Assembly (NCBI GenBank): GCA_964480945.1
Contig: CAYZRX010000001.1
Location: 48,584-112,583 of the forward strand
DNA length: 64,000 bases
From: an uncultured Ignavibacteriaceae bacterium
GTDB taxonomy: Bacteria; Bacteroidota; Ignavibacteria; UBA10030
Direction: 5' to 3'
Shown: piece by piece, positions 7,488 to 55,038 of the stretch
Layout: each line of letters begins with the position of its first letter
How positions within the stretch are numbered: position 1 is the stretch's first letter
The notes under the pieces: model-generated
Database searches by the model: none
What the model was told of the DNA's origin: nothing
The model's input: only the letters and a program-made list of their open reading frames with translations
Translations under genes and position numbers: made by a program

Positions 7488-7522
7488 AAGTCAGAAATCA
7501 AAATTGAAAAATCAAAAATACA
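7488..7522. repeat. Degenerate heptamer tandem tract
   Basis: AAGTCAG AAATCAA AATTGAA AAATCAA AAATACA between the hemF stop and the antiporter start. Confidence 0.7.
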
Positions 7523-7533
7523 GGACCTCGCAG

Positions 7534-8436
7534 TTAGGTCGTCCAATCCTGGGGGCTTCTCAGAACCTGGACGAGCCGGTCCTCCGGCGAACCAGGGTCT
7601 GGGGTGGCATCGTAGCCCCAGCGGACAAGCGGCGGCAGTGACATGAGGATCGATTCGACCCGTCCCTGCGTCTCCAGTCCAAAAAGGGTCCCGCGATCAT
7701 AGATGAGGCTAAACTCGACGTAGCGACCGCGACGTGAGAGCTGCCATGCCTTCTCTCGTCCCCCCCACGGCAGATTCTTTCGGCGCTCCACGATGGGAAC
7801 ATACGACTCAAGGACGGAGTGCCCGCATGCGCGCACGAACGAGAAGAGAGTCTCAAAATCTCCCCGAAGATAGTCGAAGAATATTCCGCCGATGCCGCGC
7901 GCTTCACCCCGGTGTTTCACGAAAAAGTACTCGTCGCACCATTTCTTGAACTTGGGGTAGTACTCCGGATTGTGCCGATCGCACACCAGCTTCCACACCG
8001 AATGGAAATGCCGGGCATCTTCGTCGAAGAGACGGGAGGGGGTCAAATCTGAGCCCCCGCCAAACCAGGCGTCCGCGGTTCCGAGCTCGAGGTAGCGAAA
8101 GTTCGCGTGGACCGCCGGGACCATCGGGTTGAGGGGGTGGATGACGAGTGAAATGCCGGTTGCAGAAAAGGATTGGGGAGGAACGTTCATCCGGCGCGCG
8201 AGCACTTCTGTCAGTTCTCCCGAAACGGCGGACGTGTTCACGCCAGCCTTCTCGAAGAGCCCCCCGTCCTGCATCACCCTCGTCGTGCCGCCACCGCCGC
8301 CGGGGTGTGACCAGGTTTCTTCCCTGAAGTGACCTCTGGTGTCCAGCTCGTTCAGCTTCGCGCAGATGATATCCTGGAGCTCTTCGAAAAACTCGGTCGC
8401 GCGCTGCCTGTTCGGTTGGGTTCCCTGAGCATGCAT
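7534..8436 (-). CDS. hemF: Oxygen-dependent coproporphyrinogen III oxidase
   Basis: FEKAGVN, HPLNPMVPAVHANFRY, WFGGGSDLTP, RGIGGIFFD, RRGRYVEF, ESILMSLPP; start moved to ATG at 8436. Confidence 0.95.
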   Translation of the reverse strand: MHAQGTQPNRQRATEFFEELQDIICAKLNELDTRGHFREETWSHPGGGGGTTRVMQDGGLFEKAGVNTSAVSGELTEVLARRMNVPPQSFSATGISLVIHPLNPMVPAVHANFRYLELGTADAWFGGGSDLTPSRLFDEDARHFHSVWKLVCDRHNPEYYPKFKKWCDEYFFVKHRGEARGIGGIFFDYLRGDFETLFSFVRACGHSVLESYVPIVERRKNLPWGGREKAWQLSRRGRYVEFSLIYDRGTLFGLETQGRVESILMSLPPLVRWGYDATPDPGSPEDRLVQVLRSPQDWTT

Positions 8437-8512
8437 AGTGCTTCTTGTTGTCTTCCTTCTGCGGCTCGTGATTTCCTTGTCGCGGCAATCGAGTGAAGAA
8501 GGAGAACCGATC

Positions 8513-10777
8513 CTACTCCTGCTCGGCGCCTTCCGTCTTCTCTTCCTTCTCCTCCTTGCTGTCCTTGAGCGTCGAGAGCAGCTCGTTCCATTTGAACCAT
8601 GCCTTCCGTCCGGTGATCCACTTCTCCATCCAGTTGAACTCGGAGACCATCTTGACCAGCTGGTTTCTGGGCGCCGTGATGCCATGGGTTGTGCCGGGAT
8701 AGACGAAGAACTCCGTCGGCACGCCGAGCTTGACGAGTGCCATGTAAAGCTCTTCGCTCTGCGGGCGGGGAACTCGCGGGTCGCCATAGACGACGTGGAT
8801 AAGCGTTGGGGTCCTCGCATTCTTGATGTACTTCAGCGGCGATTCATCCCAAAAGTGCTCGAAGTTGTCATACGGCTTGCCCTTGTAGTAGAACTCGCGG
8901 GCGCGCTGAACATCGCTCTCGGCGTACATCGAGGTCCAGTTCACGGCCCCCGCGCCGGAGGAGATGGCTTTGAACCGAGTCGTGTGTGTCAGGATCCAGT
9001 TCGACCAGTGGCCGCCCGCGCTCCAGCCCATCACTCCCATCTTGTCCTTGTCGACCAAACCGATGCTGATGAGATGGTCAACCCCGCTCATGATGTCCTC
9101 GTACCCTTGCGTGAAGTAATTGCCCGCGATCTGCATCTTGAATCGCTCGCCGTAGTTCGTCGATCCGCGGTAGTTTGGCAAAAGGCACGCGTATCCTGCC
9201 GCGGCATAGACGTGTGAATAGTACCCCGATCTCGCATTGAAGCTCAGCGTGACCGCACCTGCCGGTCCGCCGTGGATTTGCACGATCAGCGGATAGCGCT
9301 TGCCTTTCTCGTAACCCACCGGCTTCACCAGCACGCCGCCGACCATCTTGCCGTCGGTCGACTTCCATTCGACTTCTTCGGTCTCGCCGAGTGCGATATC
9401 ATCGATCTGAGGATTGGAGTTCGTCAACTGTGTCCAGTTGTCGCGGTCCGCGAGTTTGTCAATCGACGGCACTGTGTAGATGTTCCACGGTGATGTCGGG
9501 CTCGAGTAGCTGACAAGGAGCTTCTTCGTTTCCCGGTCCTGGGAGACGAACAAGCTCGCCCGTTCGTCTGTTACCTGAGTCACCTTGCCGCTCACGACGG
9601 AAAGGGCAAAGAGCTGGTTGGTCACTTTCAGACCCTCGTTGAAGTAGATCGTCTTGCCGTCGGCGGACCAGAATCCAACGTTGACATCTCCATCGAAGCC
9701 CGCCCCGAGCTTTTTCCACTTCCCGCCGCGATCCGTCGTGGGCCGAATGTAGACTCGATTGTTGCGGAAGTAAACGAAGTCGTCCTCTGCCGAGAAAGCG
9801 ATCATAGAGCCGTCGGGGGAGAAACTCAAAGAGCTCTCTCCGATGTCCGTGTTGTCCGTCAGCCGCTCGATGTTCCCCGTACCGACTTCGAGCACGTACA
9901 GATCGCTGTAGGTCTGCGATTCCGTCACCGTTCTCAGATACCGGTTATTGGGAGTCCCGCGGAATCCTATCCACTCAGAGTTGTCGGAGATCCTTACATC
10001 GCTGACGCTGTATTCGGTCCCTCCGGTCAGGCGGGCCTCTTTTTTCGTTTCCAGGTCGATTGACCAGAGGTGAACGGAGGGAGAATCTTCGTTCCGAACC
10101 TGCACATCAAATTTCTTCTCTTTTCGCTGCTTGTTCGCCTTGTCGACGCTGTCCGGCGAAAGGAAGTAGATCCGTTTGCTGTCGGGCGAGAATTGCCACG
10201 CCGTGATGGGCGCTGTGTGGTGTGTGAGCTGTCTGGGTTTCTCCTTGCCGACTGTCGGCACAGCGATGATCCAGAGTTGCCGCTCGTCATCTTTGCCTGC
10301 AGAGAACGCGAGCCATCGTCCGTCCTTGCTGAAGGCAAAGGTCGCCACCCCGTCCTTTGCTTCGGAAACCTTTGAAGCCTCGCCGCCATCGCTGCGCATG
10401 GCGTACAGTTGGTTCAACGCGGATTTCGATTCGGGGGCCTCGCGGTTCGAAAGGAAGGCAAAAAATTGACCGTTGGGAGCCCAGCGCGGAGAGGTCTCAT
10501 TCTTGTCTGTCGTGAATGTCATCTGGCGCGTCGAAGGGAGGCCCTGCTCAGTCGAGACGAGATAGATGTCGGAGTAAGATTTCGCCGCCTTCCAGTCTGG
10601 GGTCGTTAACGTGTAAAGAATCCATTTTGAGTCCGGACTGACAGATGGGCTCCCTACAGAACGCATCTCGAGGACGTCCATAAACGTCATCGATCGCTTG
10701 GCTGTTGACTGCGCGTCGGCAGACCAAGAGATGAGGAGCAAGAAGAGTGAGAGTGCGGCAAGACGCGAAGTACGCAT
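8513..10777 (-). CDS. S9 family peptidase (exported dipeptidyl/acylaminoacyl peptidase)
   Basis: Signal peptide, beta-propeller repeats, IHGGP, NYRGS, GWSAGG nucleophile motif, D-PRV, THG. Confidence 0.92.
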   Translation of the reverse strand: MRTSRLAALSLFLLLISWSADAQSTAKRSMTFMDVLEMRSVGSPSVSPDSKWILYTLTTPDWKAAKSYSDIYLVSTEQGLPSTRQMTFTTDKNETSPRWAPNGQFFAFLSNREAPESKSALNQLYAMRSDGGEASKVSEAKDGVATFAFSKDGRWLAFSAGKDDERQLWIIAVPTVGKEKPRQLTHHTAPITAWQFSPDSKRIYFLSPDSVDKANKQRKEKKFDVQVRNEDSPSVHLWSIDLETKKEARLTGGTEYSVSDVRISDNSEWIGFRGTPNNRYLRTVTESQTYSDLYVLEVGTGNIERLTDNTDIGESSLSFSPDGSMIAFSAEDDFVYFRNNRVYIRPTTDRGGKWKKLGAGFDGDVNVGFWSADGKTIYFNEGLKVTNQLFALSVVSGKVTQVTDERASLFVSQDRETKKLLVSYSSPTSPWNIYTVPSIDKLADRDNWTQLTNSNPQIDDIALGETEEVEWKSTDGKMVGGVLVKPVGYEKGKRYPLIVQIHGGPAGAVTLSFNARSGYYSHVYAAAGYACLLPNYRGSTNYGERFKMQIAGNYFTQGYEDIMSGVDHLISIGLVDKDKMGVMGWSAGGHWSNWILTHTTRFKAISSGAGAVNWTSMYAESDVQRAREFYYKGKPYDNFEHFWDESPLKYIKNARTPTLIHVVYGDPRVPRPQSEELYMALVKLGVPTEFFVYPGTTHGITAPRNQLVKMVSEFNWMEKWITGRKAWFKWNELLSTLKDSKEEKEEKTEGAEQE

Positions 10778-10900
10778 GGGGTTACCTCCTGAGTCTGGAG
10801 TGAACTCGTGGTAGGGAATTTAAGAACGGATGAGAACTAAAGCTATAAAAAAGGGAGGGAAGCGGTGGGAGCTGCGCTCGCTTCACACACCGGACTGCCG

Positions 10901-11971
10901 CTAGCGGTGATAGCGCGGGCTCTCTTCTTTCACTGCCTGAACGAGCGCCTTCGCGTGCTCGACCGGAACATCCGGTGCAATCCCGTGTCCGAGATTGAAG
11001 ATATGTCCCGGGCCCTTACCGAACTTCTCGAGAATCCTCTTCACGCCCGCTCTGATCCGATCAGGCGGCGCGTAGAGCAAGCTGGGGTCAAGGTTGCCTT
11101 GAAGGGCGACGTAGCTGCCGACCATCTCACGAGCCTTTCCGATGTCGACGGTCCAATCAAGCCCGACGACATCCGAACCGGAATCGGCGATGGCTTCCAG
11201 AGAATGGCCGCAATCCTTGCAGAAGACGATAACCGGGGCGCCGTCGCGACGGAGGAGCTGGAGAACCTGCTGGATGTATCGAAGGGAGAACTCACGGAAC
11301 TCCTCCTGCGGGAGGATTCCGCCCCACGTATCGAAGATCTGAACGGCCTGAGCGCCGGACTCGATCTGCGCGTTCAAATACGCTGCTGCCGCGCGGGCCA
11401 GCTTGTCGAGCAGAGCGTGAGCGTCTTTCGGGTCGGTGTAAATGAGCTCCTTGATGTGGCGAAAGTTCTTCGTCCCTGTCCCCTCCACCATATATGATGC
11501 GAGCGTCCAGGGCGAGCCGGAGAAACCGATCAACGGGACGCGTCCGCTGAGGCCCTTTCGGACAAGCTGCAGAGCGTCCAGGACGAATCGGAGGTGGCGG
11601 ACGGGGTCGGGCACACTCAGCTTGTCGATCTCGGCTCGTGATCGGAGAGGGTGAGGGAAACGCGGTCCGCCTTTTCCTTCTTCAATGACAAGCTCCATTC
11701 CCATCGCCTCGGGTAGCACGAGGATGTCGGAGAAGATGATACAAGCGTCGACGCCGAGGATGTTGACCGGTTGAATCGAAACTCCCGCCGCGAGTTCCGG
11801 GGTCTTGCAGAGGGTGAGGAAGTCGGTCTTCTGTCGAATGGCCCGATATTCGGGGAGATAACGGCCGGCCTGGCGCATGATCCAGACCGGGGTACGATCG
11901 ACAGGCTCACGACGACAGGCGCGCAGGAAAAGATCGTTGGGCACGGAAGCCTTTTGATTGTGGGCTGACAA
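10901..11971 (-). CDS. hemE: Uroporphyrinogen decarboxylase
   Basis: PVWIMRQAGRYLPEY, FSDIL, LQGNLDP, HIFNLGHGI; start uncertain (TTG 11971 or GTG 11944). Confidence 0.95.
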   Translation of the reverse strand: MSAHNQKASVPNDLFLRACRREPVDRTPVWIMRQAGRYLPEYRAIRQKTDFLTLCKTPELAAGVSIQPVNILGVDACIIFSDILVLPEAMGMELVIEEGKGGPRFPHPLRSRAEIDKLSVPDPVRHLRFVLDALQLVRKGLSGRVPLIGFSGSPWTLASYMVEGTGTKNFRHIKELIYTDPKDAHALLDKLARAAAAYLNAQIESGAQAVQIFDTWGGILPQEEFREFSLRYIQQVLQLLRRDGAPVIVFCKDCGHSLEAIADSGSDVVGLDWTVDIGKAREMVGSYVALQGNLDPSLLYAPPDRIRAGVKRILEKFGKGPGHIFNLGHGIAPDVPVEHAKALVQAVKEESPRYHR

Positions 11972-11982
11972 CGGTCGACTTT

Positions 11983-13194
11983 CTACGAGGCGGCGAAGTA
12001 GTCGGCAAGGGATTCCACAAGCGACTCGGCAGTTGATTGCCTCGCCGTGATTTGCACGGGGAGACCGCAATCCTGAGCAGCCTTCGTCGTAGTTGGGCCG
12101 ATTGCCGCTACCAGCGTGTTTTCCGCGTAGTCGTTCCCAACCATTTGGACGAAGTTCTGGACGCTTGAAGGACTGAAGAACGTCACCACGTCGATCTCTT
12201 GGTTGACAAGGGCCTGGCGGACGACGTCGAGGTTTCTCGGCTGCGTGCCGACGGTCCTGTAGACAACAATCTCATCGACGACTGCATCCTTCGCGCGGAG
12301 GGCGTTTGGAACGACCTCCCGGCCAATGTTGCTCCGGGGAAAGAGGAAACGCTTCCCGGCGACGTCCATTCCTGCGAGAGCAGCGGCCAGCCCCTCCGCG
12401 GCTTGATGCTCAGGGATGAGCTCGACCGGAACCTTGGCTTTGCGCAGTGCGCCCCGCGTCTTCTCGCCGACAGCATAAACGTGCCGTTCCGACAGAGCCG
12501 ATTTCGCTTGAGGACGTATCTTCTCAATCCTGCTGAGGAATCTCTCGACGGCATTTGAACTCGTGAAGATCACCCCGAAGTACTCGCTCAGATTCGCGAT
12601 CGCTCGATCGCAGTCATTCCACGAGTCCGGCTCGAGAATTGCGATCGTCGGGAGGACCAGAGGGTACGCACCACGATCTTCGAGAAGCTCGACGAGCGGT
12701 TGGCTTTGATCGGCTGTGCGCGTGAGCAGGAAGACCTTGCCCTCCAGCGGTCTCGGGCTCGCAGCGGGATGAGCAAGGCTCGGCACATACGGTACGAGCT
12801 CTTCGCTCACCCGGAACGGGGAGTCGGGAGCATCGATATCCAGCTCAGAGGCCTTTCTCATCAACCCGGAGAGGTGTCGGTATGATGATATGAGATACTC
12901 GAGATGCTCACGGTTCGAGATGACCGAGGGTCCGTCTTTCCCGGACAGTTGGGTCACGGTCTCCTCGCATGCAGCTGATGCTCGCTCCAGACATTGAAGG
13001 AATTCTGCCCTCAGCCCACGCAGGAGATATGCATGCACGATCTCCCGAGCCACGGTCTTGGAGGAGCGGCGGATCGCTGTGGCGAGGTCCGGTCGCAGGC
13101 TCAGCGTCTCGAACAGCGTCAGGGTGTTGATTTGCGCTGCAAGCGATCGAGCGAGCTGGTAGATTTCAAGTCTGGTGTATCCTTCGTCGATCAT
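11983..13194 (-). CDS. hemD: Uroporphyrinogen-III synthase with N-terminal four-helix-bundle (IVS-protein-like) domain
   Basis: C-terminal part LLTRT, FTSSNAV, AVGEKT, VYRT, FFSPSSV, AIGPTT is HemD; the first ~118 aa follow the four-helix-bundle pattern. Confidence 0.88.
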   Translation of the reverse strand: MIDEGYTRLEIYQLARSLAAQINTLTLFETLSLRPDLATAIRRSSKTVAREIVHAYLLRGLRAEFLQCLERASAACEETVTQLSGKDGPSVISNREHLEYLISSYRHLSGLMRKASELDIDAPDSPFRVSEELVPYVPSLAHPAASPRPLEGKVFLLTRTADQSQPLVELLEDRGAYPLVLPTIAILEPDSWNDCDRAIANLSEYFGVIFTSSNAVERFLSRIEKIRPQAKSALSERHVYAVGEKTRGALRKAKVPVELIPEHQAAEGLAAALAGMDVAGKRFLFPRSNIGREVVPNALRAKDAVVDEIVVYRTVGTQPRNLDVVRQALVNQEIDVVTFFSPSSVQNFVQMVGNDYAENTLVAAIGPTTTKAAQDCGLPVQITARQSTAESLVESLADYFAAS

Positions 13195-13209
13195 GGCGTA
13201 TTGACCCTG

Positions 13210-14175
13210 TTAAACGTGAGAAGGTTTCGCGGCGGGTTGACTGGTGCGAATCTCGGACAAGATCTCACGGCCTCCTCTTTCGAGCAGTTGTTTCGCCAGC
13301 TGAATTCCCAGAGCCTCCGATTCGGCGGAGCTCCCTCCAATGCTTCCCCTCACGACCCGCCTCCCGTCCAAGCTCCCAATCAGCGCATCGAGTCGGAATG
13401 TGCCGTCTTCCAGTCTGCCGTACGTCCCGATGGGAACCTGGCAGCCCCCTTCGAGGAACCGGAGAAACGCCCGTTCACCGCTCACGGCGATCGCCGTACT
13501 CTCGTGGTGCAACTTCTGCACGACCTCTCGCACACTCTCATCGCTCTCCCGCATCACGATCGCCAACGCACCCTGTCCCACTGCGGGCAGCATCGTTTCC
13601 ACAGGAAGGACCTCGGCGATTCTTTCCTCCCATCCGAGCCTCTTCACGCCGGCTCGTGCCAGGACCATCCCATCCCAATCAGAGGTCGCGAGCTTCTTGA
13701 GCCGAGTGTTCAGGTTCCCTCGAATATCGATGACCTCAAGGTCAGGCCGGATCTGAAGGAGCTGGCACCGTCGCCTCAGGCTGCCGGTGGCAATCTTCGC
13801 GTGACGGGGAAGATCCCCAAAGCGTCGGTGGTTTTTCGCCGGATGGGCTATGAACGCATCCCGGACATCCTCACGTTCAACGACAGCGCCGATCGTGAGG
13901 CCGGCCGGGAGGATCGTCGGCACGTCCTTGGCGCTGTGGACAGCGATGTCGATCGTGCGGTCGAGGAGGGCGTGATCGATCTCTTTCGTGAAGAGACCCT
14001 TGTCACCAATCCTTGAAAGGGGGGAGTCAAGGATCTTGTCCCCAAGGGTCTTGATGATTTGAAGCTCGACGTCGAGTGCCGGAAAGAGTTTGCGCAGTTC
14101 CGACTTGACGAAATTGCTCTGCCACAGAGCAAGCTCACTCCCCCTCGTACCGATGATCAAACGCTTAACTGTCAT
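13210..14175 (-). CDS. hemC: Hydroxymethylbilane synthase (porphobilinogen deaminase)
   Basis: IGTRGSELALWQ, KGLFTKE, AVHSAKD, RGNLNTRL, LEGGCQVPIG. Confidence 0.97.
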   Translation of the reverse strand: MTVKRLIIGTRGSELALWQSNFVKSELRKLFPALDVELQIIKTLGDKILDSPLSRIGDKGLFTKEIDHALLDRTIDIAVHSAKDVPTILPAGLTIGAVVEREDVRDAFIAHPAKNHRRFGDLPRHAKIATGSLRRRCQLLQIRPDLEVIDIRGNLNTRLKKLATSDWDGMVLARAGVKRLGWEERIAEVLPVETMLPAVGQGALAIVMRESDESVREVVQKLHHESTAIAVSGERAFLRFLEGGCQVPIGTYGRLEDGTFRLDALIGSLDGRRVVRGSIGGSSAESEALGIQLAKQLLERGGREILSEIRTSQPAAKPSHV

Positions 14176-15451
14176 TCGAGCGATCCTTTTGGACGGCGTC
14201 GATACCGAAGAGTCTCCTCACGATGTTGATCTTTTGGAGCCTATCGGAGACCGATTCGTCCTGACCGTTCCTCAGGTTCACGATCGGGGTGTGGAGGATT
14301 TTGTTGATGATACGTTTGGTGACAAGGTCGACGAGTTCGCGATCTTTCTGCTCGAAGCGGTTGATGTTCTTCGCCACCTCGCCCCTTCGAATGTTTTCGA
14401 TAAGCTCCGTTAGAGCAGCGATGGTCGGGTTCGCTTGCAGCGACGCATGCCATTTGTAGAGCTCGGTCAGCTCTTCCGAGATGATTTGCTTGATTTGCGG
14501 GATCTCGGCCTGGCGCTTCTGGATGGTCTCGTTCACCATTCCGTTGAGGCTGTCCATGTCGTACAGAAAGACGTTCTCGAAGTCCTTTGCCGCAGGATCG
14601 ATGTTGCGGGGCATGCCGATGTCGATGAGGAAGAGCGCGCCGGAGTGCCGCCCTTTGTTGATCCTGGCGATATCGTCGGCGGTCAGGACGTACTGGTCCG
14701 TCTGGACGGAGGACACAATGATATCGAGCTCACCGAGTCTGTCGCGGAAGCTCTCGAACGGGAGAGTCTTTCCCCCGACCATCTTCGCCAACTGTTCGCC
14801 GCGTTCTGCTGTCCTGTTGGTGATGTAGAGTGTGCCGATGCCTTTTCCCGCCAGATGTTTCGCGGTCAACTGGGCGGTGTCGCCCGCTCCGATGACGAGG
14901 GCCTTCTTACGATGCAGGTCGTCAAAGATGCGTTCGGCGAGCTCGACGGCGGCGTAGCTGACGGAGATCGCTCCCTCGGAAATCTGAGTTTCGCTCCGCG
15001 CGCGTTTCCCCACGTGGAAAGCGGACTGGAAGAGCTTGTTCATAAAGAATCCCGCCGTGCCGCTATCGTGTGCAAGGTTGTACCCATCCTTCACTTGAGC
15101 CAAGATCTGGACGTCTCCCGCCACCATCGAGTCGATGCCCGAGGCGACGTGAAACAAATGTTCCGCCGCGCCGCTCGCAAAGAACGAGAAGAACCGGGAT
15201 GCAGGGACATCCTGCGAGGCTGACTTTTGCTCCCGGAGAAAATCTTTCAGGAATTCGACCCGAAGGCCATCCTGCGAGCTGAATGTGTACACCTCTGTCC
15301 TGTTGCAGGTTGAGAACAAGACGCATTCGTGGAAACCCGCCGATTTGAGCTGGGGGAGGGCAGCCCGAATTTCGTCATCGGAGAACCAGAGCCGCTCGCG
15401 CATCTCGAGGGGAGCCGTGTGGTGCGATATGCCGACGCAAACAAGATTCAC
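14165..15451 (-). CDS. hemA: Glutamyl-tRNA reductase
   Basis: STCNRTE, SGIDSMVAGDVQILAQVK, VIGAGD, DIGMPRNID. Confidence 0.96.
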   Translation of the reverse strand: MNLVCVGISHHTAPLEMRERLWFSDDEIRAALPQLKSAGFHECVLFSTCNRTEVYTFSSQDGLRVEFLKDFLREQKSASQDVPASRFFSFFASGAAEHLFHVASGIDSMVAGDVQILAQVKDGYNLAHDSGTAGFFMNKLFQSAFHVGKRARSETQISEGAISVSYAAVELAERIFDDLHRKKALVIGAGDTAQLTAKHLAGKGIGTLYITNRTAERGEQLAKMVGGKTLPFESFRDRLGELDIIVSSVQTDQYVLTADDIARINKGRHSGALFLIDIGMPRNIDPAAKDFENVFLYDMDSLNGMVNETIQKRQAEIPQIKQIISEELTELYKWHASLQANPTIAALTELIENIRRGEVAKNINRFEQKDRELVDLVTKRIINKILHTPIVNLRNGQDESVSDRLQKINIVRRLFGIDAVQKDRSNDS

Positions 15452-15475
15452 GTGAAGATTCCTGCCCCCTTCCCC

Positions 15476-16294: not shown

Positions 16295-16547
16295 GGGTAG
16301 CCCTCGGAAGGTCCGCTTACACCGTCATTTTTCTCAATATTTAATTTAGTCAACTGCTGTGCCACAAACGGGAAAGCTAAATCAGGCCGATCATATCCTA
16401 TTCTTGCGAAAAGTCCAAGAGCGCGAGTTGGGAATTTCTTGCCTTTCGGAACGTCGATAGATATATTGGCTGGGCCTCCGGAATGATTTGTCCAGCAGGT
16501 GGGAGGCTTTCCGACACGCAGGACTCTAACCAAAAAGGACTCTCCTC

Positions 16548-17939: not shown

Positions 17940-17966
17940 GAGGATGAAGGTTTCCTTCTGCGAGGA

Positions 17967-18012: not shown

Positions 18013-18015
18013 ACA

Positions 18016-23837: not shown

Positions 23838-24524
23838 ATGAGTGCTGTCGGAGAATACTTTCATACTATCTGGCTCGCGGTCTCGACCGTCGCGATCGGC
23901 ATGAAGATCACGTTCAAGCACCTGTTCGTGCCGGCGGTGACTCTCCAGTATCCGGATGTCAAGATGAAGCTGCCGGAGCGGGCGCGCAATCGTCTCTACG
24001 TAAACATCGATGACTGTATCGGCTGCGACCAGTGTTCGATGGCGTGCCCGGTCGATTGCATCATTATCGAGACGATCAAATCGACGCCCGACCAGGACCT
24101 CGGGGTCACATCAACCGGCCACAAGAAGCGTCTCCATCTTCCCAAGTTCGACATCGACATCGCGAAGTGCTGCTACTGCGGGCTCTGTGTGCCTCCGTGT
24201 CCGACCGAGTGCATCGTCATGACCGACGTCTTCGAATTTTCGGAATTCGACCGGAAGAATCTGATCTACAACTTCAGCATCATGACGCCGGGCGATATTG
24301 AGGTCGCGAAGGAGAAGTTGAAGAAAGCCGAAGCGGAAGCGGCGGCCAAGAAAGCAGCCGCGGCGGCAGCGGCAGCAGCTGCAAAAGCGAGCGCAGCCGC
24401 GCAACCGGCTCCACCCGCGGCGACACCAGCTCCATCGCCGAAGCCGGAGGAGCGCACGCCGGGCCAGAATCCCCAACCGGGTACAACCACGACGGACCCC
24501 GGCGAACCACCGGAGAAATCATAG
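23838..24524 (+). CDS. nuoI: NADH-quinone oxidoreductase subunit I with Ala/Pro-rich tail
   Basis: CIGCDQCSMACP and CCYCGLCVPPCP; position between nuoH and nuoJ. Confidence 0.93.
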   Translation: MSAVGEYFHTIWLAVSTVAIGMKITFKHLFVPAVTLQYPDVKMKLPERARNRLYVNIDDCIGCDQCSMACPVDCIIIETIKSTPDQDLGVTSTGHKKRLHLPKFDIDIAKCCYCGLCVPPCPTECIVMTDVFEFSEFDRKNLIYNFSIMTPGDIEVAKEKLKKAEAEAAAKKAAAAAAAAAAKASAAAQPAPPAATPAPSPKPEERTPGQNPQPGTTTTDPGEPPEKS

Positions 24525-25432: not shown

Positions 25433-25467
25433 AGATCGAAGATTGTAAATTGTAGATTGGAAATCTA
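25433..25467. repeat. Degenerate heptamer tandem tract
   Basis: AGATCGA AGATTGT AAATTGT AGATTGG AAATCTA between nuoK and nuoL. Confidence 0.7.
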
Positions 25468-38836: not shown

Positions 38837-38876
38837 GATGAATGGATTGATGGGATGATGGGATAATGGAATAGTG
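38837..38876. repeat. Degenerate octamer tandem tract
   Basis: GATGAATG GATTGATG GGATGATG GGATAATG GAATAGTG after the dnaK stop. Confidence 0.7.
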
Positions 38877-38986: not shown

Positions 38987-41638
<2,652 letters not shown>

Positions 41639-43753: not shown

Positions 43754-43760
43754 ACCGCCC

Positions 43761-44657: not shown

Positions 44658-44696
44658 AGAATCGGAGCATCGATTCGCCAGTTTCATTCCTGGGTC

Positions 44697-47570: not shown

Positions 47571-47634
47571 CACCGTATTCATATTCTGCAGGCCGTGTAC
47601 CCCCTTTTTCCATTCCGCAACTGCCGATCTGCAA

Positions 47635-48273
47635 TCACCTCGAAACCCACTCGTTTCCCTTCACAAAGAACCGCCAGCGCTTCTCGCCTCCGTTCGTAAC
47701 GCCAATCCGGGTGGAGCGTCCGATCCTCGATTCTGGGATCGTTTCGCCTTTTAGCAGATAGATCGTGTTGCCGACCAAGTCTGTCCCGTTCTGCTCTCGC
47801 GAGATGCCGAACGCCTGGCAGAACTTCGCCGGGCCGTTCGTGAGGTTGAAGAGGAATTGGTGAGTGGTTTGCGCCAGAGGCGCATCCGCCTTCGGCGGAA
47901 ATTGGTGAATGGTCGGGTGGTGGGTGGGGAATCGATTCTTCATCATCACTTCAATCCCCTTGATCGGCTCGACCGCGCGGATGAGCGCCGCCTCGCCGAT
48001 CCCCTCTTTCCTCGTGACGACGTTCGCGCAGAAATGCATCCCGTAGGTGAAGTACACGTAAAGGTGGCCGCCCTTCGAGTACATCACCTCATTCCGCTTC
48101 GTCCTGCCCCGGAACGTGTGCGATGCCGGGTCGCCTTCGCGGTACGCTTCGGCTTCGACGATCCTGCCGATAAGCCTTCGACCCCGATGTCGGCAGACGA
48201 TGAATTTTCCAAGAAGGTCTCGTGCGACCTCGAGGGTTGGGCGGAGGTAGAAGGAGCGGGAAAGCTTGGACAT
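47635..48273 (-). CDS. mpg: DNA-3-methyladenine glycosylase (MPG/AAG family)
   Basis: VARDLLGK, IVEAEAY, YVYFTYGMH, LIRAVEP, LTNGPAK, RIGV; start moved to ATG 48273. Confidence 0.93.
   Translation of the reverse strand: MSKLSRSFYLRPTLEVARDLLGKFIVCRHRGRRLIGRIVEAEAYREGDPASHTFRGRTKRNEVMYSKGGHLYVYFTYGMHFCANVVTRKEGIGEAALIRAVEPIKGIEVMMKNRFPTHHPTIHQFPPKADAPLAQTTHQFLFNLTNGPAKFCQAFGISREQNGTDLVGNTIYLLKGETIPESRIGRSTRIGVTNGGEKRWRFFVKGNEWVSR
47870..47899. mobile_element. 30-nt double-hairpin micro-insertion, copy 1 (in frame in mpg)
   Basis: TGCGCCAGAGGCGCATCCGCCTTCGGCGGA flanked by GGTT and AATTGGTGAAT; mobility inferred, not shown. Confidence 0.65.
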
Positions 48274-48282
48274 CGTTAGTTT

Positions 48283-48310
48283 TCGGTTGTCAATTGCCGA
48301 TTGTCGATCT
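48283..48310. repeat. Heptamer tract just upstream of the mpg start
   Basis: TCGGTTG TCAATTG CCGATTG TCGATCT. Confidence 0.65.
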
Positions 48311-48462
48311 GAGGGAGGTGAGGCCGAACGATCTGAGCCGCCTCCTGTGATCTTGAATGTAGAAGTTATTGGAGTGAGTTTCAATCACGAGCGCCGACCT
48401 CCCAACGCAGCCCTTTCGATCGAGCTTGTTTCTTTCTCTTTCGTCCTCTATTTTCCAGGAGC

Positions 48463-49227
48463 ATGAAACGGAAACTCAAATGGCGCCTCGAGTCGACCAG
48501 GAGTGAGATCCTCTACGAAGATGATCATCTCGTGGTCCTCAACAAGCCGGCAAATCTGCTCGTCCTGCCCGACCGATACAATGTGAAGCTCCCGAATCTC
48601 TACGGAATCTTTAGCGAAGAACTCGGCAAGATCTTCGTCGTCCATCGTCTCGACAAGGAGACGAGCGGTCTCATCGTCTTCGCAAAGACGGCAGAGGCGC
48701 ACGCAGCTCTCAGTGAACAATTTGAGGGAAGGAGGGTGGAAAAGGTTTATGAAGCTCTCGTTGTCGGCGTCCCTGCGGATTCGGAGGGGACAATCGATCT
48801 CCCGCTTGGCGAAAGAACGCGCGACCGGGGGGTCGTTAAGGTGGATCGTAAGGCGGGAAAACGCTCGGTGACACGGTACAAGGTCCTCGAGCAGTTCAAC
48901 GGCTTCGCGCACCTTGAGGCGCGGCCAGCGACCGGGCGGACGCATCAGATCCGCGTGCATCTTCAGGCGATCGGAATGCCGATCCTTGCTGACAGGTTGT
49001 ACGGAGATGGGAGGGGGTTCTATCTGTCGCGTGTCAAACCGGGCTACAAGATACAGGGGGAGGAGAAGCCGTTGCTCGACCGCGCCGCCCTGCACGCTGC
49101 TTCGATCTCCTTTGACCATCCCGCTACCGGGGAGCGCATGACGTTCTCAGCCCCGTTGCCCAAGGACATGAGTTCGGTCCTGAAATATCTCAGGAAATTT
49201 AAAGCGCTGGAGCCGTTAGCACATTAA
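48463..49227 (+). CDS. RluA-family pseudouridine synthase
   Basis: VLNKP, VHRLDKETSG, TGRTHQIRVHL, LHA. Confidence 0.94.
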   Translation: MKRKLKWRLESTRSEILYEDDHLVVLNKPANLLVLPDRYNVKLPNLYGIFSEELGKIFVVHRLDKETSGLIVFAKTAEAHAALSEQFEGRRVEKVYEALVVGVPADSEGTIDLPLGERTRDRGVVKVDRKAGKRSVTRYKVLEQFNGFAHLEARPATGRTHQIRVHLQAIGMPILADRLYGDGRGFYLSRVKPGYKIQGEEKPLLDRAALHAASISFDHPATGERMTFSAPLPKDMSSVLKYLRKFKALEPLAH

Positions 49228-49266
49228 AGCGGAAGGAGGAGGGCTTTTCTGGGCGACTGCGGTTAC

Positions 49267-50325
49267 TCAGAAGAGTGTCTCTTGGTCTGAAGGCTTCCGT
49301 GTGAGTCCGAAATGCTTGTAGGCGACGGCCGTTGCCTCGCGGCCTCGTGGCGTTCGCTTCAGAAACCCCTCCTGAATGAGGTAAGGTTCGTACACTTCCT
49401 CTATCGTCCCGGGCTCTTCACCCACCGCGACCGCGAGCGTGTTCAATCCCACCGGCCCTCCGCTGTACTTGTCGATGATGGCCCGCAGAATCCGCTTGTC
49501 CATTTCATCCAGCCCGTGGTCGTCGACTTCGAGCGCCCGAAGGGAGTACTGCGCAACCTCCTTCGTTACGACCCCACGATGGTCCGCGAGTTTGCGGTCC
49601 GCCTGAGCAAAATCCCGGCAGCGTTTCAAGAGGCGATTCGCGATGCGGGGGGTTCCCCGCGCGCGCCCGGCGATCTCTGCGGCAGCCTCGTCGGTTGTCC
49701 CTATCTCCAGGATCTTCGCCGATCGCCGCACAATCGTTCGCAGCTGATCGACGTTGTAGTAGTCGAGTCGGTTGGAGATGCCGAAGCGCGAGCGCAGGGG
49801 GGCGCTGAGAAGGCCGGCCCGCGTGGTTGCACCCACTAGCGTGAAGGGCTCAAGATTGAGCGAGATCGTCTTCGCGCCGGGCCCGCTGTCGATGATGATG
49901 TCGACGCGGAATTCCTCCATCGCTGAGTAGAGGTACTCTTCGATCTTTACCGGCACCCGGTGGATCTCATCGATGAACAGCACCTCCCCCTTCTCGAGCG
50001 AAGTCAAAATCCCCGCGAGGTCCCCCGGTTTCTCCAGCGCAGGTCCGGACGTGACCTTGATTCCAACGCCCATCTCGTTCGCGATGATGAACGCCAGCGT
50101 CGTTTTGCCCAGACCGGGCGGTCCAGTCAGGAGAACGTGATCGAGAGGTTCGTTCCGGCCCTTTGCCGCAGAGATGAAGATCCGGAGGTTGTCGACGATC
50201 TTCCCCTGTCCGACGAACTCCTCGAGTCGGGCCGGACGGAGCGTCTGATCGAGCTCCAGTTCATTGTCGAGTCGCTCGGGCGATGTGAACCCGCGATCTC
50301 GTTCGCTTGCGTCCGTTTTCTTCAT
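49267..50325 (-). CDS. ruvB: Holliday junction helicase RuvB
   Basis: [49 protein letters not shown]. Confidence 0.97.
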
Positions 50326-50419
50326 ACGGCGACAAAGTACCAAGAAGGGGAGTGACTTTCAACCGCGCTAAAGCAGAGCGAAGATGGCTTCGGACTGTCC
50401 TCGAAGGGGGAATTCGGGT

Positions 50420-51031
50420 TCATCTCGGGCTTGTGTATCGAAGTGCTCTCTTGATGAGATCCTGAAGTGAGATCCCGGTTCCTGCGGACTCATTCAATAC
50501 CTGGCGTATGGCTTTCTCCGCAACCTGACGGTTGTAGCCGAGCGAGGTGAGGGCGAGGAGGGCCTCCTGCCGAATTCCCGCCTCCTGGTCCGCCGGGCCC
50601 ATCGCAGCAGACGACACCTGCTCCGCCAATTTGCCGACCTTGTCGCGCAGTTCGATGATGAGCCGCTCTGCGGTCTTCTTGCCCACGCCCGGGATCGCAG
50701 TGAGGGCGGCGAGGTCTCCCTTCGCGATATGCGATTTCATGTCAGCGACCGAGATGCCCGAGAGTATCCCTTGGGCGATCTTCGGCCCGATTCCGCTCAC
50801 GGAAATGAGCAGCTTGAACAGGAATCGTTCCTCCTCGGTTGCGAAGCCGTAGAGCTGGAGTGCGTCCTCGCGCACGTGAAGGTAGGTGAAGAGCGTGACG
50901 TGGGCGTTGAGATCCCCGAGTTTCTCAAACGTCGAGAGAGGGATAAGGACGCCGTAGCCGACTCCATTCACATCGACGAGGATTTCCGTCGGCGTCTTGA
51001 CTCTCAGAATGCCGCTCAATGAGGCGATCAT
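50420..51031 (-). CDS. ruvA: Holliday junction binding protein RuvA
   Basis: VNGVGY, VREDALQLYGF, VSGIGPK, IPGVGKKTAER, ALTSLGY. Confidence 0.96.
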   Translation of the reverse strand: MIASLSGILRVKTPTEILVDVNGVGYGVLIPLSTFEKLGDLNAHVTLFTYLHVREDALQLYGFATEEERFLFKLLISVSGIGPKIAQGILSGISVADMKSHIAKGDLAALTAIPGVGKKTAERLIIELRDKVGKLAEQVSSAAMGPADQEAGIRQEALLALTSLGYNRQVAEKAIRQVLNESAGTGISLQDLIKRALRYTSPR

Positions 51032-51600
51032 CGGGACTTCCTGATACGTTCGGGATGTGATTCAATGAACGACTTCCAGTCGGCCATGGTCTTCTTTGAA
51101 CCGGGTTTCCCCTTGTGAGACTTGCCATCCCCGTGGCTTCGCTGGTAGTGACAGATGGCGACGGCCAGCGCATCTGTTGCATCATAGTATTTTGGAGGGG
51201 CTTTGAGCTTCAGGATGGACTGCACCATATAACTGACCTGCTCTTTTGAGGCTCCCCCGTTTCCAACGACGGCCCGCTTAACCTCTCGGGGTGAGTACTC
51301 CGCCGTCGGGATTTCGCGGTTCACGGCTGCCAGAATGGAAACGCCGCGGGCGTGACCGAGCTTCATGGCGGACTGTGCGTTCTTGCCGTAGAACGCCGTC
51401 TCAATGGCAAACTCGTCGGGGTGGAACCGATCGATCACCCTGCACAGTGTCGCGTAGATAGCTCTCAGACGGAGAGGCATCCTCTGATCGCCCCGGTTCT
51501 TGACGACGTCGAACTCAAGCACCTTCAACTTGCCGCTCTTGGCTTCGATGACTCCATATCCGGTCGTGAGAGTTCCGGGGTCGACGCCGAGAATGATCAT
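51028..51600 (-). CDS. ruvC: Crossover junction endodeoxyribonuclease RuvC
   Basis: MIILGVDPG, AIETAFY, KLGHARG, DATDALAVAICH; start moved to ATG 51600. Confidence 0.96.
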   Translation of the reverse strand: MIILGVDPGTLTTGYGVIEAKSGKLKVLEFDVVKNRGDQRMPLRLRAIYATLCRVIDRFHPDEFAIETAFYGKNAQSAMKLGHARGVSILAAVNREIPTAEYSPREVKRAVVGNGGASKEQVSYMVQSILKLKAPPKYYDATDALAVAICHYQRSHGDGKSHKGKPGSKKTMADWKSFIESHPERIRKSR

Positions 51601-51602
51601 CT

Positions 51603-51672
51603 GGTTAATTGGTGAATGGTCAATTGGTGAGTGGTTGATTGGTGAATGGTTAATTGGTGAGTGGTTAGTTGG
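51603..51672. repeat. 15-mer tandem repeat (GGTYRATTGGTGART x4 plus a partial unit)
   Basis: GGTTAATTGGTGAAT GGTCAATTGGTGAGT GGTTGATTGGTGAAT GGTTAATTGGTGAGT GGTTAGTTGG. Confidence 0.85.
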
Positions 51673-51696
51673 CAAAAGCTAAACTGATGAATGGTT

Positions 51697-51726
51697 TGGG
51701 CCAAAGGCCCATCCGCCTCCGGCGGA
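51697..51726. mobile_element. 30-nt double-hairpin micro-insertion, copy 2
   Basis: TGGGCCAAAGGCCCATCCGCCTCCGGCGGA flanked by GGTT and AATTGGTGAGT; mobility inferred. Confidence 0.65.
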
Positions 51727-51772
51727 AATTGGTGAGTGGCGTATACGTCAGTTTGAGGATTTTGAGCCTCAT

Positions 51773-51828
51773 AGCCAATTAACTAATTAACTAGTTAACC
51801 AGTTAACGAGTTGACTCGTCAACCAGAC
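51773..51828. repeat. Degenerate octamer tandem tract
   Basis: AGCCAATT AACTAATT AACTAGTT AACCAGTT AACGAGTT GACTCGTC AACCAGAC. Confidence 0.8.
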
Positions 51829-51842
51829 AGCCCTTCACTCTC

Positions 51843-52595
51843 TCATCCCGCGCTGAAGCTCGCCATAACGCTTTCGTCGATATCGAAGTTGCTGTACACG
51901 TGTTGGACATCATCGTGCTCTTCCAGAGCTTCCATGAGCTTCAGGAGGACCTCCGCGTCTTTTCCTTCCACCTTCACCGTATTTTCGGGGATCATCTGGA
52001 GCTCGGCGTGCTCCATCGGAATTTCCCGTTGCTCGACGGCCTTCTTGACGGCTTCGAACGACTCCGGCGTCGTCGTGATCACGTAATGCTCCTCCTCGGT
52101 TGTCATGTCGTCAGCGCCAGCTTCCAGAATGATCTCCAGGAGGACGTCTTCGGCTACTTTGTTCTTCGGAACCGTGATCTGACCTTTCTTATGGAACTGG
52201 TACGCCACCGCGCCGGTCGCGGCGAGCTTTCCGTGATTGCGATCCAACACGTGGCGAAGTTCCGAAACGGTGCGTGTCTTATTGTCCGTCACCGTCTCGA
52301 CCAATATCGCGGCGCCTCCGGGACCGTAGATCTCGTAAGTCACATCTTCGTACGCCATTCCCGGCAGCTCGCCTGTGCCCTTCATGATCGCCCGCTTGAT
52401 ATTGTCCGCAGGCATGTTGTTGGCTTTCGCCTTCTCGATCGCAAGGCGAAGCCGGGGGTTTCCGCCCGGATCGCCGCCGCTGAGCCGGGCAGCAATTGTA
52501 ATCTCCTTGATGATCTGGGTGAACATCTTGCCGCGCCGTGCATCCGTGACGGCCTTCTTGCGGCGGATCTGATGCCATTTTGAATGACCAGACAT
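51843..52595 (-). CDS. yebC: YebC/PmpR family protein
   Basis: MSGHSKW, NPRLRLA, YGPGG, TDNKTRT, DDVQHVYSN; upstream of ruvC. Confidence 0.96.
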   Translation of the reverse strand: MSGHSKWHQIRRKKAVTDARRGKMFTQIIKEITIAARLSGGDPGGNPRLRLAIEKAKANNMPADNIKRAIMKGTGELPGMAYEDVTYEIYGPGGAAILVETVTDNKTRTVSELRHVLDRNHGKLAATGAVAYQFHKKGQITVPKNKVAEDVLLEIILEAGADDMTTEEEHYVITTTPESFEAVKKAVEQREIPMEHAELQMIPENTVKVEGKDAEVLLKLMEALEEHDDVQHVYSNFDIDESVMASFSAG

Positions 52596-52708
52596 GGGCG
52601 TCGCCTTTTTCGAAAAGTGAAACGTGATAAGATGTGAAACCTGCGACGGTAACTTCCCCGATCTTCCTGATTACTATTTGTATGCCTTATCCCTCAGCTC
52701 TTCAGAAC

Positions 52709-54463
52709 TCACTTCAAATCTCGAATCTTCAGCTGAGGGACAGTTTCTCCGGCAAACTCACCCTCGTCGAGCGAGAAAGCGAGGTCGACGGTCTTTCTTC
52801 CGTTGCCAAGCTTCTCGATCAGGCCTCCGAGACTGAAGCCGATTGCGTCGAAGATTTGGCCGTTCGTCTTGACCTTAAACTTCAGGTGGTTCTTGCCGAC
52901 GATCCTCGGCGCTCCATAGAGCTCGACGCCGCGCACGACGAACACGGGTCGCATGTTCCCGGGGCCGAACGGTGCAAATTGACCCAGCACCCGGACGAAC
53001 TTTGGCGTAAGCTCGCTTAGCGAGATTTCGGTATCGATGCGAATCTCGGGGGTGAGAAGCTCCTCGGTCAGCAGTTCTTTGGCAACCACGTTGAATGCCT
53101 CTTTGAACTCGTCAAGTCGGTCGATCTCCACGGAGAGTCCTGCCGCATACTTATGCCCGCCGAACTGGACGAGCTTGTCCTCGCATCGCCTGAGCGCCTG
53201 GTAGATGTCGAAGCCGGCGACGCTGCGGGCGGAGCCTTTCGCCACGCCGTCGACGGTCGTCATCATAATCGTGGGGCGATAGTACCGCTCCACAAGCCTT
53301 GATGCGACGATGCCGATGACGCCCGGGTGCCACGTCTCCTGATGGAGGACGATCGCGCTCTCGTTCTCAACGTCCAGGTACTTTTCGACGATCTGCTGCG
53401 CCTCGAGAAAGGTGTCTTCGTCGATCTTCCGGCGGTTACGGTTCTCTTCCTCGAAGACCTGGGCGAGCTCCAGCGCTCGAGCGTAAGAGTCGCAGGTGAG
53501 CAGTTCGACCGCACGAGTGGCGTCCCCCAGTCTGCCGACGGCATTAATGCGCGGCGCGAGAACAAAGACGATTTTGCCCGTCGTGATGGATCCGACCTTC
53601 AGGCCCGACGTCTCGATCAGCGCGTGGACGCCGGGGCGCGGGTTGGAGTTCAGGAGCTCCAGGCCCAGCTTGACAAGGACCCGATTCTCCCCTGTCAACC
53701 GGACGATATCTGCCGTCGTTGCGAGAGTGACGAAGTCGAGGTATCGCGAGAGGAAGCTTTCCTCATCCCCATCGATCAACGGGCGAACCGACTCGTGACG
53801 GGAGAGCGCCTGCACGAACTTGAACGCAACGCCGCAGCCGCAGAGATGTTTGTATGGATACTTGCAGTCGGGAAGCAAAGGGTCCAGCACCGCCAGAGCA
53901 TCGGGGACCGCGTCCCCCGGCTCATGATGGTCGCAAATGATCACCTCCATGCCGGAGCTGCGTGCAAGCTCCACCTGTTTGATTGCAGTAATGCCGCAAT
54001 CGACCGCAACGAGCAGTCGGACGCCCAGCTGTCTGGCACGCTCGATGCCGGCCTCCGAAAGCCCGTATCCCTCCTTGACGCGATCGGGGATATGGTAGTG
54101 AACATCGGCGCCGAGATTCTTCAGGAACGTCCACAACAAGGCCGTGCCGTTCGTTCCGTCCACATCGTAGTCGCCATAGACCAGGATCCTCTCCTTCTTT
54201 GAGACGGCTCCGACAATTCTGTCGACGGCTTGCTCCATGCCGTGCATAAGAAACGGATCGTGGAGGTCTTTCAGGGTTGGCCGAAAGTACGCTCGTGCCG
54301 ATTCAAACGTATCGATCCGACGCCGGACGAGTATCTCAGCAAGAACGATGGAGATGCCCAGCTCATCGCTCAGCTTCTTTGCCGCTTCCGGCGATGCCGG
54401 CGGGGAGGCTGCGGGGCTATCCGGATCTGTGAATGTCCACCGATATTCTCGGATTGGGGTCAT
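52709..54463 (-). CDS. recJ: ssDNA-specific exonuclease RecJ
   Basis: YGDYDVDG, DCGI, CDHH, PRINAVGR, WHPGVIGIVASR, GSARS, FGGH; start approximate. Confidence 0.95.
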   Translation of the reverse strand: MTPIREYRWTFTDPDSPAASPPASPEAAKKLSDELGISIVLAEILVRRRIDTFESARAYFRPTLKDLHDPFLMHGMEQAVDRIVGAVSKKERILVYGDYDVDGTNGTALLWTFLKNLGADVHYHIPDRVKEGYGLSEAGIERARQLGVRLLVAVDCGITAIKQVELARSSGMEVIICDHHEPGDAVPDALAVLDPLLPDCKYPYKHLCGCGVAFKFVQALSRHESVRPLIDGDEESFLSRYLDFVTLATTADIVRLTGENRVLVKLGLELLNSNPRPGVHALIETSGLKVGSITTGKIVFVLAPRINAVGRLGDATRAVELLTCDSYARALELAQVFEEENRNRRKIDEDTFLEAQQIVEKYLDVENESAIVLHQETWHPGVIGIVASRLVERYYRPTIMMTTVDGVAKGSARSVAGFDIYQALRRCEDKLVQFGGHKYAAGLSVEIDRLDEFKEAFNVVAKELLTEELLTPEIRIDTEISLSELTPKFVRVLGQFAPFGPGNMRPVFVVRGVELYGAPRIVGKNHLKFKVKTNGQIFDAIGFSLGGLIEKLGNGRKTVDLAFSLDEGEFAGETVPQLKIRDLK

Positions 54464-54572
54464 GGAGGCTCGATGCTTACCCATCTTGGCGCCGTCCTCG
54501 GAACGCAGTTCACTGATCGATTCAGTGCCCCTGGTCCAAGCCGGTGATGGGGGATGTGGATTGATAGAAGAA

Positions 54573-55038
54573 GCAGGCGTGATCGGTCGATAAGCCGAAT
54601 TCTGTCTGATCCCGCCTCGACCGAAGTCAAGACGGGGCGAGGCAGCCATTTCTCTTAGCGACCTACCCATCCCGTTTCTCGCGAGAGAGTTGAGCGGGCA
54701 GCTCTTCCCCGCCAGAGGCGGGGGCGGGACTTATTTGGTCTTGCACCAGGCGGGGTTTGTCTTGTCCCGCTCTGGCTTTCGCCAAAGCGGAATCCCTTTC
54801 GGGACCTCCGACATTACTGCCGGAGCGGTGGTCTCTTACACCACCATTTCACCTTTCTCCCGTCACCTTCAGCGAAGGTGATGGGATGTGTGTTTTCTGT
54901 GACACTATCCGTTCCAGCGGGATCTGGCCCGTTGGACCCTTGGTTGACCCAAGGCGCCACGCCCTATGGTGTTCGGACTTTCCTCCCCCCGTCCGCATGC
55001 GGCGGACGGGAAGCGGCTGCCTGACCGACCATACCTGC
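54573..55038 (-). ncRNA. rnpB: RNase P RNA, type A, lacking P18
   Basis: Minus strand carries GGAGGAAAGTCCG, ACAGAAAA, GGTGAAATGGTGGTGTAAGAGACCACC, GCAAGACCAAATA and ACAGAATTCGGCTTAT; the two ends pair as P1. Confidence 0.95.

Follow-up and report, generated by a model that had tools for sequence, protein, structure and literature searches.

How do tandem arrays of 7- and 8-nt units, double hairpins and a four-helix-bundle domain come to lie between, and even inside, housekeeping genes? The question is raised by a 64,000-nt stretch of DNA (G000:C1:48584-112583, hereafter the window) from an uncultured Ignavibacteriaceae bacterium, part of an Ignavibacteria-type genome of 3.9 Mb in 149 contigs with 56% G+C, in which Pfam annotation of the 65 open reading frames (ORFs) of the window found housekeeping genes only. 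The original prediction saw in these features one system, in which tracts are landing sites where small cassettes and hairpins are inserted by an enzyme encoded elsewhere. We lean slightly towards another answer, namely two independent classes of small repeats together with an unrelated helix expansion in rnpB, the gene for RNase P RNA, rather than one integrated system. The first class is made up of heptamer and octamer arrays, which would be the inverted arms, or the leftovers, of cassettes carrying an Avd-like gene of the PF05635 family, whose products are four-helix-bundle (4HB) proteins. The second is a 32-nt double hairpin (DH), which would be a separate, structure-constrained repeat multiplying in relatives inside ordinary transposon-like elements.

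The arrays belong to 4HB cassettes, to which they are tied, with controls, as companions of one gene family across many phyla. In the source genome, 10 of the 11 PF05635 matches have 7/8-nt tandem arrays within ~180 nt; each cassette has its own unit, and the arrays on its two sides are complementary. Inverted arrays of such units were found on both sides of seven of the 10 scorable genes, with an inverted-flank score of at least 27, against a 99th percentile of 26 and a maximum of 28 in 500 random controls. Genome-wide there are nine inverted array pairs, seven of which enclose a PF05635 match. One of the other two, called at C65:13650-14131, proved to be a false positive, with no arrays on inspection. 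In computed RNA folds the arms pair with each other, both in a filled cassette, C19 (z = -2.7), and in the spacer between yebC and ruvC in the window (z = -2.9).

The same association is found in public genomes of many phyla, where a search with a three-protein alignment yielded at least 591 relatives of one 4HB subfamily. Among the best 80 of these, 73 loci had both flanks; arrays were present on both flanks in 49 and on one flank in 16 (65/73 with at least one), the best arrays having periods of 7 (68), 14 (20), 21 (10) and 8 (7), and 45 of the 73 loci scored above the 99th percentile of a control in which the flanks of different loci were paired. The link between tracts and 4HB genes, which the original prediction had put forward as a conjecture, is thus borne out by the arrays that flank these genes here and across phyla. 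Array units also track the relatedness of the 4HB proteins, a shared unit being seen in 6/8 pairs with at least 70% protein identity, in 11/33 pairs at 60-70% and in 51/887 at 40-50%, a pattern easier to reconcile with arms that belong to the cassette itself than with neutral landing pads.

Within the window, the clearest case is the yebC-ruvC spacer, which, judging from its alignments, appears to be a 4HB cassette without its gene. Inverted arrays stand on both sides of it (51602-51826), and these arms share TGGTTAAT/TGGTGAG units with the filled C19 and C74 cassettes. The left arm, which continues into an ATG leader, can be aligned with the corresponding arms and leaders of both these cassettes, and the right arm shares 26 of 27 bases with its counterpart in C74. 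No intact 4HB gene lies in the loop: the ATG leader is kept, and ~95 nt including a DH replace the ORF of ~390 nt. In three genomes of the same genus (G001, G002 and G003; the source genome is G000, and the related-genome set numbers 41), the spacer is ~70 nt long and has a single ATTCAC-type heptamer array only. The start of ruvC, which the original prediction had counted among the altered translation starts, is not altered, because all five relatives examined begin at MIILGVDPG; the longer ruvC ORF, extending through the tract, is an artefact of ORF calling. DNA contigs from four sequencing runs break at the arrays and the DH, and one joint, from 51630 to 51775, has a shorter side of only 27 letters, so that it may derive from another locus. 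As for abundance, the summed contig depth at 51569-51715 climbs over the array from ~10 to 65 and from ~6 to 185 in two salt-marsh metagenome runs; in those samples the same array sequence therefore occurs at numerous loci or in numerous organisms.

Comparison of close relatives for polymorphic sites, which had been proposed as a check, revealed several. The C19 site carries a filled cassette here, and in all three same-genus relatives the same two genes enclose an empty hairpin, whose arms, inverted 8-mer arrays, are recognisably homologous. The C74 site is filled here and in G001, not in G003. The DUF58/uvrA spacer is plain (39 nt) here, with arrays in G002 (140 nt, an inverted pair) and in the related genome G022 (127 nt), and the rluA/ruvB spacer, equally plain and 39 nt long here, measures 211 nt and has inverted arrays in G022. 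Together with the DH of mpg, described below, the C19, DUF58/uvrA and rluA/ruvB sites thus differ among related genomes. Relatives also carry heptamer tracts with other units in the nuoK/nuoL spacer, where their tracts are related to that of the window, and in the dnaK/clpB spacer, where the heptamers are of GCAG type; in G022 a TCGATTG-type array adjoins mpg in the mpg/rluA spacer. A separate observation concerns G002:C2 (L183), whose rluA/ruvB and mpg/rluA spacers have other hairpin-rich inserts, of 235 and 244 nt versus 39 and 189 nt here, which include GTCCCGC..GCGGGAC and GCGCC-type hairpins.

The second trace of a 4HB gene in the window is the N-terminal domain of HemD, described in the original prediction as a decayed gene fused into hemD. 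The fusion itself stands. Residues 1-117 match PF05635 at 28.3 bits, under the 33.8 cut-off (E 2.2e-6 with Pfam, 5.1e-7 in a whole-genome scan), and they align with 4HB paralogues from M1; two distant fused homologues (P0008 and P0014) keep an NIAEG-like motif and carry a precomputed PF05635 label. An AlphaFold2 model built from an alignment of the paralogues has four long helices with a mean predicted local distance difference test score (pLDDT) of 84.6, and the best Foldseek matches in the PDB are 2RLD and 2GSC, with a target-normalised template-modelling (TM) score of 0.82-0.87 and an E-value of only ~1e-2; the predicted structure thus has a four-helix-bundle fold like that of these two entries, each of which contains five chains. 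What did not hold is the decay. There are 13 fused 4HB-HemD homologues of 373-419 amino acids, which cover the whole protein, and nine of the 13 have no indels over the 117 residues. In the five that are 74-82% identical (P0002-P0006), the 4HB part is 69-79% identical versus 76-84% for the HemD part. The fusion is therefore conserved, neither decayed nor a recent accident. The extension is absent from the HemD of G005, and G022 has a homologous one; with a HemD-domain query, hemD was not found in G001 and G002, which is not evidence of absence. No inverted arrays flank the domain (inverted-flank score 16).

These observations can be accommodated in a simple scheme for the first class. The arms of a cassette would pair, so that a long stem closes a loop containing the 4HB gene, and RNase III would excise this stem from the host transcript, by analogy with the intervening sequences (IVS) of 23S rRNA, which would let cassettes reside inside operons. 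Cassettes would lose or gain their gene, giving rise to empty inverted pairs and solo arrays, and these would long remain at the same positions between genes, in many cases immediately ahead of start codons. The N-terminal domain of HemD would be a cassette gene whose stop codon and arms were lost long ago and which was kept as a domain.

The DH has the form T-xyGCC-RRA-GGCy'x'-AT-xyGCC-YYY-GGCy'x'-A and occurs in 23 copies in the genome by a strict search, or at 32 sites by a pattern allowing up to two substitutions. Its structure is under selection, because 82 of the 84 unconstrained stem positions form Watson-Crick pairs, with 4-6 dinucleotide types. The double hairpin reported in a protein gene and in a spacer is indeed there, in mpg (47868-47899) and between yebC and ruvC (51695-51726), and the filled and empty repeat units were also correctly described: AATTGGTGAGTGG-(32-nt double hairpin)-AATTGGTGA(A/G)TGG is found at 47855-47912 and 51682-51739, two stretches that are 86% identical, beside plain array units. 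In mpg the insert adds 15 residues to a variable loop. The mpg of G002 has two array units without a DH, and the gene of the window adds the DH and one more unit, that is 45 nt in frame. The length of this loop, which is bounded by MxKNR and NLTNGPAKF, differs among 29 relatives, and two genomes of other genera (G018 and G020) have different tandem tracts at the same place. The outcomes claimed for core genes can now be sorted: a new loop in Mpg and a fusion in HemD, and no altered translation start in ruvC. Core genes would thus have come to include a DNA-repair enzyme that tolerates a 15-residue loop and a haem-synthesis enzyme that has long kept a mobile-element protein as a domain.

DH copies lie in arrays at only three of the 32 sites, namely mpg, the yebC-ruvC spacer and C86. 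Those in mpg and C86 are identical, flanks included, which we read as a sign that a composite unit was probably copied, and not that three insertions took place. By Tandem Repeats Finder (TRF), a DH is near an array at 2/32 sites versus 57/5000 random positions, a weak signal that comes from one array family. In G009, by contrast, the DH forms the central part of a ~150-nt element that is bounded by terminal inverted repeats and an 8-bp target duplication; both ends are seen in at least seven of 20 copies, and the DH would move there within this element, at a distance from arrays. Recombination through the arrays probably copied the DH of the window, along with adjoining array units, from one locus to another of the same array family; such composite copying would explain why the DH sits in frame in mpg. 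The G009 burst comprises 20 loci (L129-L148) with near-identical elements that have terminal inverted repeats beginning GGTAGTGTCC and that each carry, besides the DH, a second hairpin (AGATGCTGAA..TTCAGCATGAC). Four DH-bearing loci had no match in Rfam at E-values up to 1, and a hammerhead-like reading was rejected by eye, the core motifs being a misfit. Eight DH sites at six loci are within 300 nt of tRNA genes; copies are found just downstream of genes for tRNA-Leu, -Pro, -Met, -Ala and -Ser (C26:41013-41159; C6:78880; C72:20234; C97:10642; C23:44671), often flanked by GGTTCT and AGAATCC, as though an insert had split a T-loop box, and C26 has three tandem 61-nt units that repeat a tRNA 3' end with the DH inside.

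The third component is the rnpB gene, the only Rfam match of the window at the gathering threshold. The two-hairpin insert in its P12 helix, which the original prediction had listed as a double hairpin in rnpB, is real and polymorphic within the genus: it is present in the source genome, G002 and G003, and absent in G001, as it is in G005, G011 and G013, which represent three other genera. Its membership of the DH family did not hold up, since no match to the DH pattern was found in it at up to two substitutions; the insert is an unrelated helix expansion. A different hairpin of rnpB, CCCCGCCAGAGGCGGGG (plus strand, 54707-54723), has the form of one DH half; the four genomes of the genus have it, G005 lacks it and G011 and G013 have dissimilar sequence in its place, and it could be chance, 213 such hairpins being found in the genome versus 101 in simulation. 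Vioque is said to have described, in 1997, short tandemly repeated repetitive (STRR) sequences inside the rnpB of heterocystous cyanobacteria.

Several points count against reading the arrays as cassette arms and the DH as an independent repeat. Movement was not observed, and no enzyme was found. The C19 site, empty with homologous arms in all three relatives, also fits insertion into an existing hairpin, that is the landing-site idea; the 4HB proteins of C19, C74 and G001 are mutually 79-82% identical, so that the change could have run either way, by gain or by loss of the gene in the hairpin. Kinship confounds the co-variation of unit and protein. Most arrays of the genome are solo (146/160 at a TRF score of at least 36, a set that includes chance rows), so that for these descent from cassettes is a matter of extrapolation, and the cassette origin of the HemD domain is argued from homology because no arms are left. 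Finally, in the set of 41, genomes with more DH copies tend to have more PF05635 matches (Spearman 0.48, kin not being independent).

Could the arrays instead be regulatory leaders of the host, acting in translation or RNA processing, with the 4HB protein as a regulator that binds arrays, its own among them, and the cassettes as autoregulated, immobile genes? This is unlikely, although it accounts well for position: of the six tracts in the window, four stop 2-9 nt short of a start codon (those of a kefC-type gene, nuoL, mpg and ruvC), and the 169 sets of TAACTGA repeats in marine Beggiatoaceae mostly lie immediately before start codons (PMC4679880, in part). The GGGAATC heptamers of Xanthomonas, which form 70-75 convergent pairs, keep their gene context in 83-90% of cases between two species (PMC4692102, in part). 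Co-variation of unit and protein would be expected of a regulator and its site as well, and the five chains in the entries of the solved relatives would also suit one. However, close relatives have different units at the same site, whole arrays are present or absent between genomes of one genus, and in mpg the arrays lie within a coding loop.

That a single enzyme encoded elsewhere inserts both cassettes and hairpins at tracts serving as landing sites, as first proposed, is improbable. It would explain why the C19 hairpin is empty in three relatives and filled here, why the DH of mpg separates precisely those two array units that stand in G002 with no DH, why relatives have arrays with other units in the same spacers and why the counts of DH and PF05635 rise together. 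Yet the DH is a separate family from the arrays and their cassettes. Its pattern is present in 24 of the 41 related genomes (own genome 21, G001 2, G002 0, G003 13, G009 38; the reversed pattern, used as a control, gave 0 everywhere), PF05635 in 39 of the 41, and five genomes (G002, G007, G012, G029 and G037) have 8-13 PF05635 matches and no DH, so that the proposed correlation of element counts gave a mixed answer. The scarcity of DH in arrays, two of the three cases being identical composite copies, and the transposon-like elements of G009 point the same way. As to the enzyme, none of the 65 window ORFs matches a transposase by Pfam, as had been noted at the outset, and the rest of the genome offers no candidate: there is no RVT_1 match in the whole genome (98.17% complete), and none of its eight Y1_Tnp matches lies within 10 kb of any of the 32 DH sites on a shared contig. 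What survives of the one-system proposal is thus the link between arrays and 4HB genes, the polymorphic sites and the remodelled core genes, and what falls is the part assigned to the DH, together with the decay of the hemD fusion and the altered start codon.

The remaining possibility, that the tracts are unrelated products of replication slippage which co-occur with hairpins and a 4HB domain by chance, is very improbable, and the controls have in large part refuted it already: four of the window's six tracts do score 31-37, where chance rows are common, but the excess of period-7 rows over simulation, the PF05635 association here and across phyla and the pairing of the arms as inverted arrays all contradict it. 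With tracts called by TRF and the chance level taken from an order-3 Markov simulation of the genome, there are 161 real period-7 rows versus 82 simulated genome-wide at scores of at least 30, 66 versus 3 at 36 or more and 39 versus 1 at 40 or more. The period-7 class is real, because of the excess at 36 or more, and at scores of 30-35 about half of the rows could be chance. Where at least eight periodic tracts had been claimed, the window has six of period 7 or 8, all intergenic, plus array units within mpg at 47855-47939 (Table 1). Only those at 51602-51672 and 51775-51826 are robust alone; the other four are borderline singly, because three score in the chance band and the fourth just above it, though for two of them, in the nuoK/nuoL and dnaK/clpB spacers, relatives have arrays as well. 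The octamer tract beside dnaK has the unit of the arms of another 4HB cassette, C57 (ATGGAATG/TCCATCAC). Like STRR, the period-7 class consists of tandem 7-nt units, intergenic and in excess over chance.

Table 1. Repeat-related features of the window (positions are those of the window)
Feature	Position	Strand	Context or measure
Heptamer tract TCAAAAA, ~4 units	7491..7519		6 nt upstream of start codon of kefC-type gene; TRF 37, borderline alone
Linker (residues 118-150) and HemD enzyme domain, same open frame	11983..12843	-	PF02602 E 8.3e-62, residues 166-394
N-terminal 4HB (PF05635-type) domain of HemD, residues 1-117	12844..13194	-	
Heptamer tract ATTGTAA, ~3 units	25442..25464		7 nt upstream of nuoL start; TRF 32
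Octamer tract ATGGAATG, ~4 units	38842..38872		12 nt past dnaK stop; TRF 34
Insert in mpg coding region: array unit (47855-47867), 32-nt DH (47868-47899), array unit (47900-47912)	47855..47912		
Heptamer tract TCGATTG, ~4 units	48283..48308		9 nt upstream of mpg start (ATG 48273-48271); TRF 31
Conserved ruvC start codon (MIILGVDPG)	51597..51599	-	5/5 relatives examined start at same residues
Left arm of putative gene-less 4HB cassette: 15-nt (7+8) array TGGTTAATTGGTGAG, 4.7 units	51602..51672	+	TRF 107-121
Array unit, 32-nt DH (51695-51726) and array unit, within putative gene-less cassette	51682..51739		
Right arm of putative gene-less cassette, inverse units TTAACYAG	51775..51826	-	TRF 48-62
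rnpB (RNase P RNA class A), 458 nt vs 367-position model	54575..55032	-	179.4 bits
Two-hairpin insert in P12 of rnpB, ~44 nt	~54764..54807	-	

How do these elements compare with known ones? Genes of the PF05635 type were first seen in IVS of 23S rRNA, and the IVS of Leptospira is another that bears an ORF. In Coxiella burnetii, three GACAGAT repeats precede the S23p ORF of the IVS, their copy number varying between strains, and the IVS is excised by RNase III (PMC4990558, in part). The likeness to the cassettes is close: inverted ends form a stem whose loop holds a PF05635-type ORF, heptamers precede this ORF, and the ORF tends to decay. In contrast, the units described here lie between or inside protein genes rather than in rRNA, arrays of 7/8-nt units form the two arms, and there are gene-less versions and a domesticated HemD fusion. 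Save for the Coxiella paper (PMC4990558), no publication linking PF05635/S23p genes to heptamer arrays was found in a search that covered journals other than subscription ones. The heptamer repeats of cyanobacteria (STRR), Xanthomonas and Beggiatoaceae, as far as the consulted portions of the reports describe them, resemble the arrays in being intergenic 7-nt tandem arrays, in their convergent pairs and in ending just before start codons; they differ in that the arrays here share no genome-wide unit, every cassette having one of its own. Passages of PMC4692102 and PMC4679880 searched for S23, four helix and intervening sequence contained no mention of PF05635 genes. These arrays were reported without an explanation, and the link with PF05635 gives them a testable common origin.

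For the DH, the nearest parallel is the small dispersed repeats (SDR) of Nostoc. Elhai et al. reportedly described these in 2008 as hairpins of 21-27 nt with compensatory changes, nested in heptamer repeats or mini-transposons and sometimes in genes. If so, the DH occurs in the same three contexts (heptamer arrays, a transposon-like element and a gene), and it differs in being 32 nt long, in having two hairpins and in belonging to another phylum. The elements of G009, with their terminal inverted repeats and 8-bp target duplications, resemble miniature inverted-repeat transposable elements; the DH copies of the window have no such ends, their flanks being array units, and so do not qualify. 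Nor does the DH behave like a repetitive extragenic palindrome accompanied by its transposase (REP/RAYT), with 0/8 Y1_Tnp matches near DH sites. Avd, the accessory protein of diversity-generating retroelements, belongs to the same superfamily as PF05635 (PMC10053308, in part); a retroelement of this kind would have a reverse transcriptase, which the RVT_1 search did not find in this 98% complete genome. A more far-reaching view, which we hold to be doubtful at present, is that PF05635 genes and their inverted heptamer arms make up a self-contained and very widespread insertable module, that STRR-like arrays are its footprints or re-usable docking hairpins, and that module exchange at these hairpins, together with small hairpin repeats hitch-hiking through the arrays, steadily supplies core proteins, Mpg and HemD among them, with new loops and domains.

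Among the housekeeping genes of the window, Pfam identifies those for haem synthesis (hemH, hemF, hemE, hemD, hemC and hemA) and also nuoA-N, hsp20, dnaK, clpB, uvrA, mpg, ruvABC, yebC and recJ. For annotation, it matters that ORFs running through arrays yield false long N-termini (ruvC, mpg and hemF). The longest ORFs of hemF (7534-8820, 428 amino acids, with a Pfam match from residue 142) and mpg (47635-48384, 249 amino acids, to which relatives align from about residue 37) are over-extended upstream, and the true starts are probably internal. Lastly, a tandem repeat of another kind is found in the gene for a NuoI-like protein of 228 amino acids, where two copies of a 27-nt unit with GCAGCG sub-repeats (24321-24383) encode a low-complexity C-terminal tail rich in Lys, Ala and Glu.

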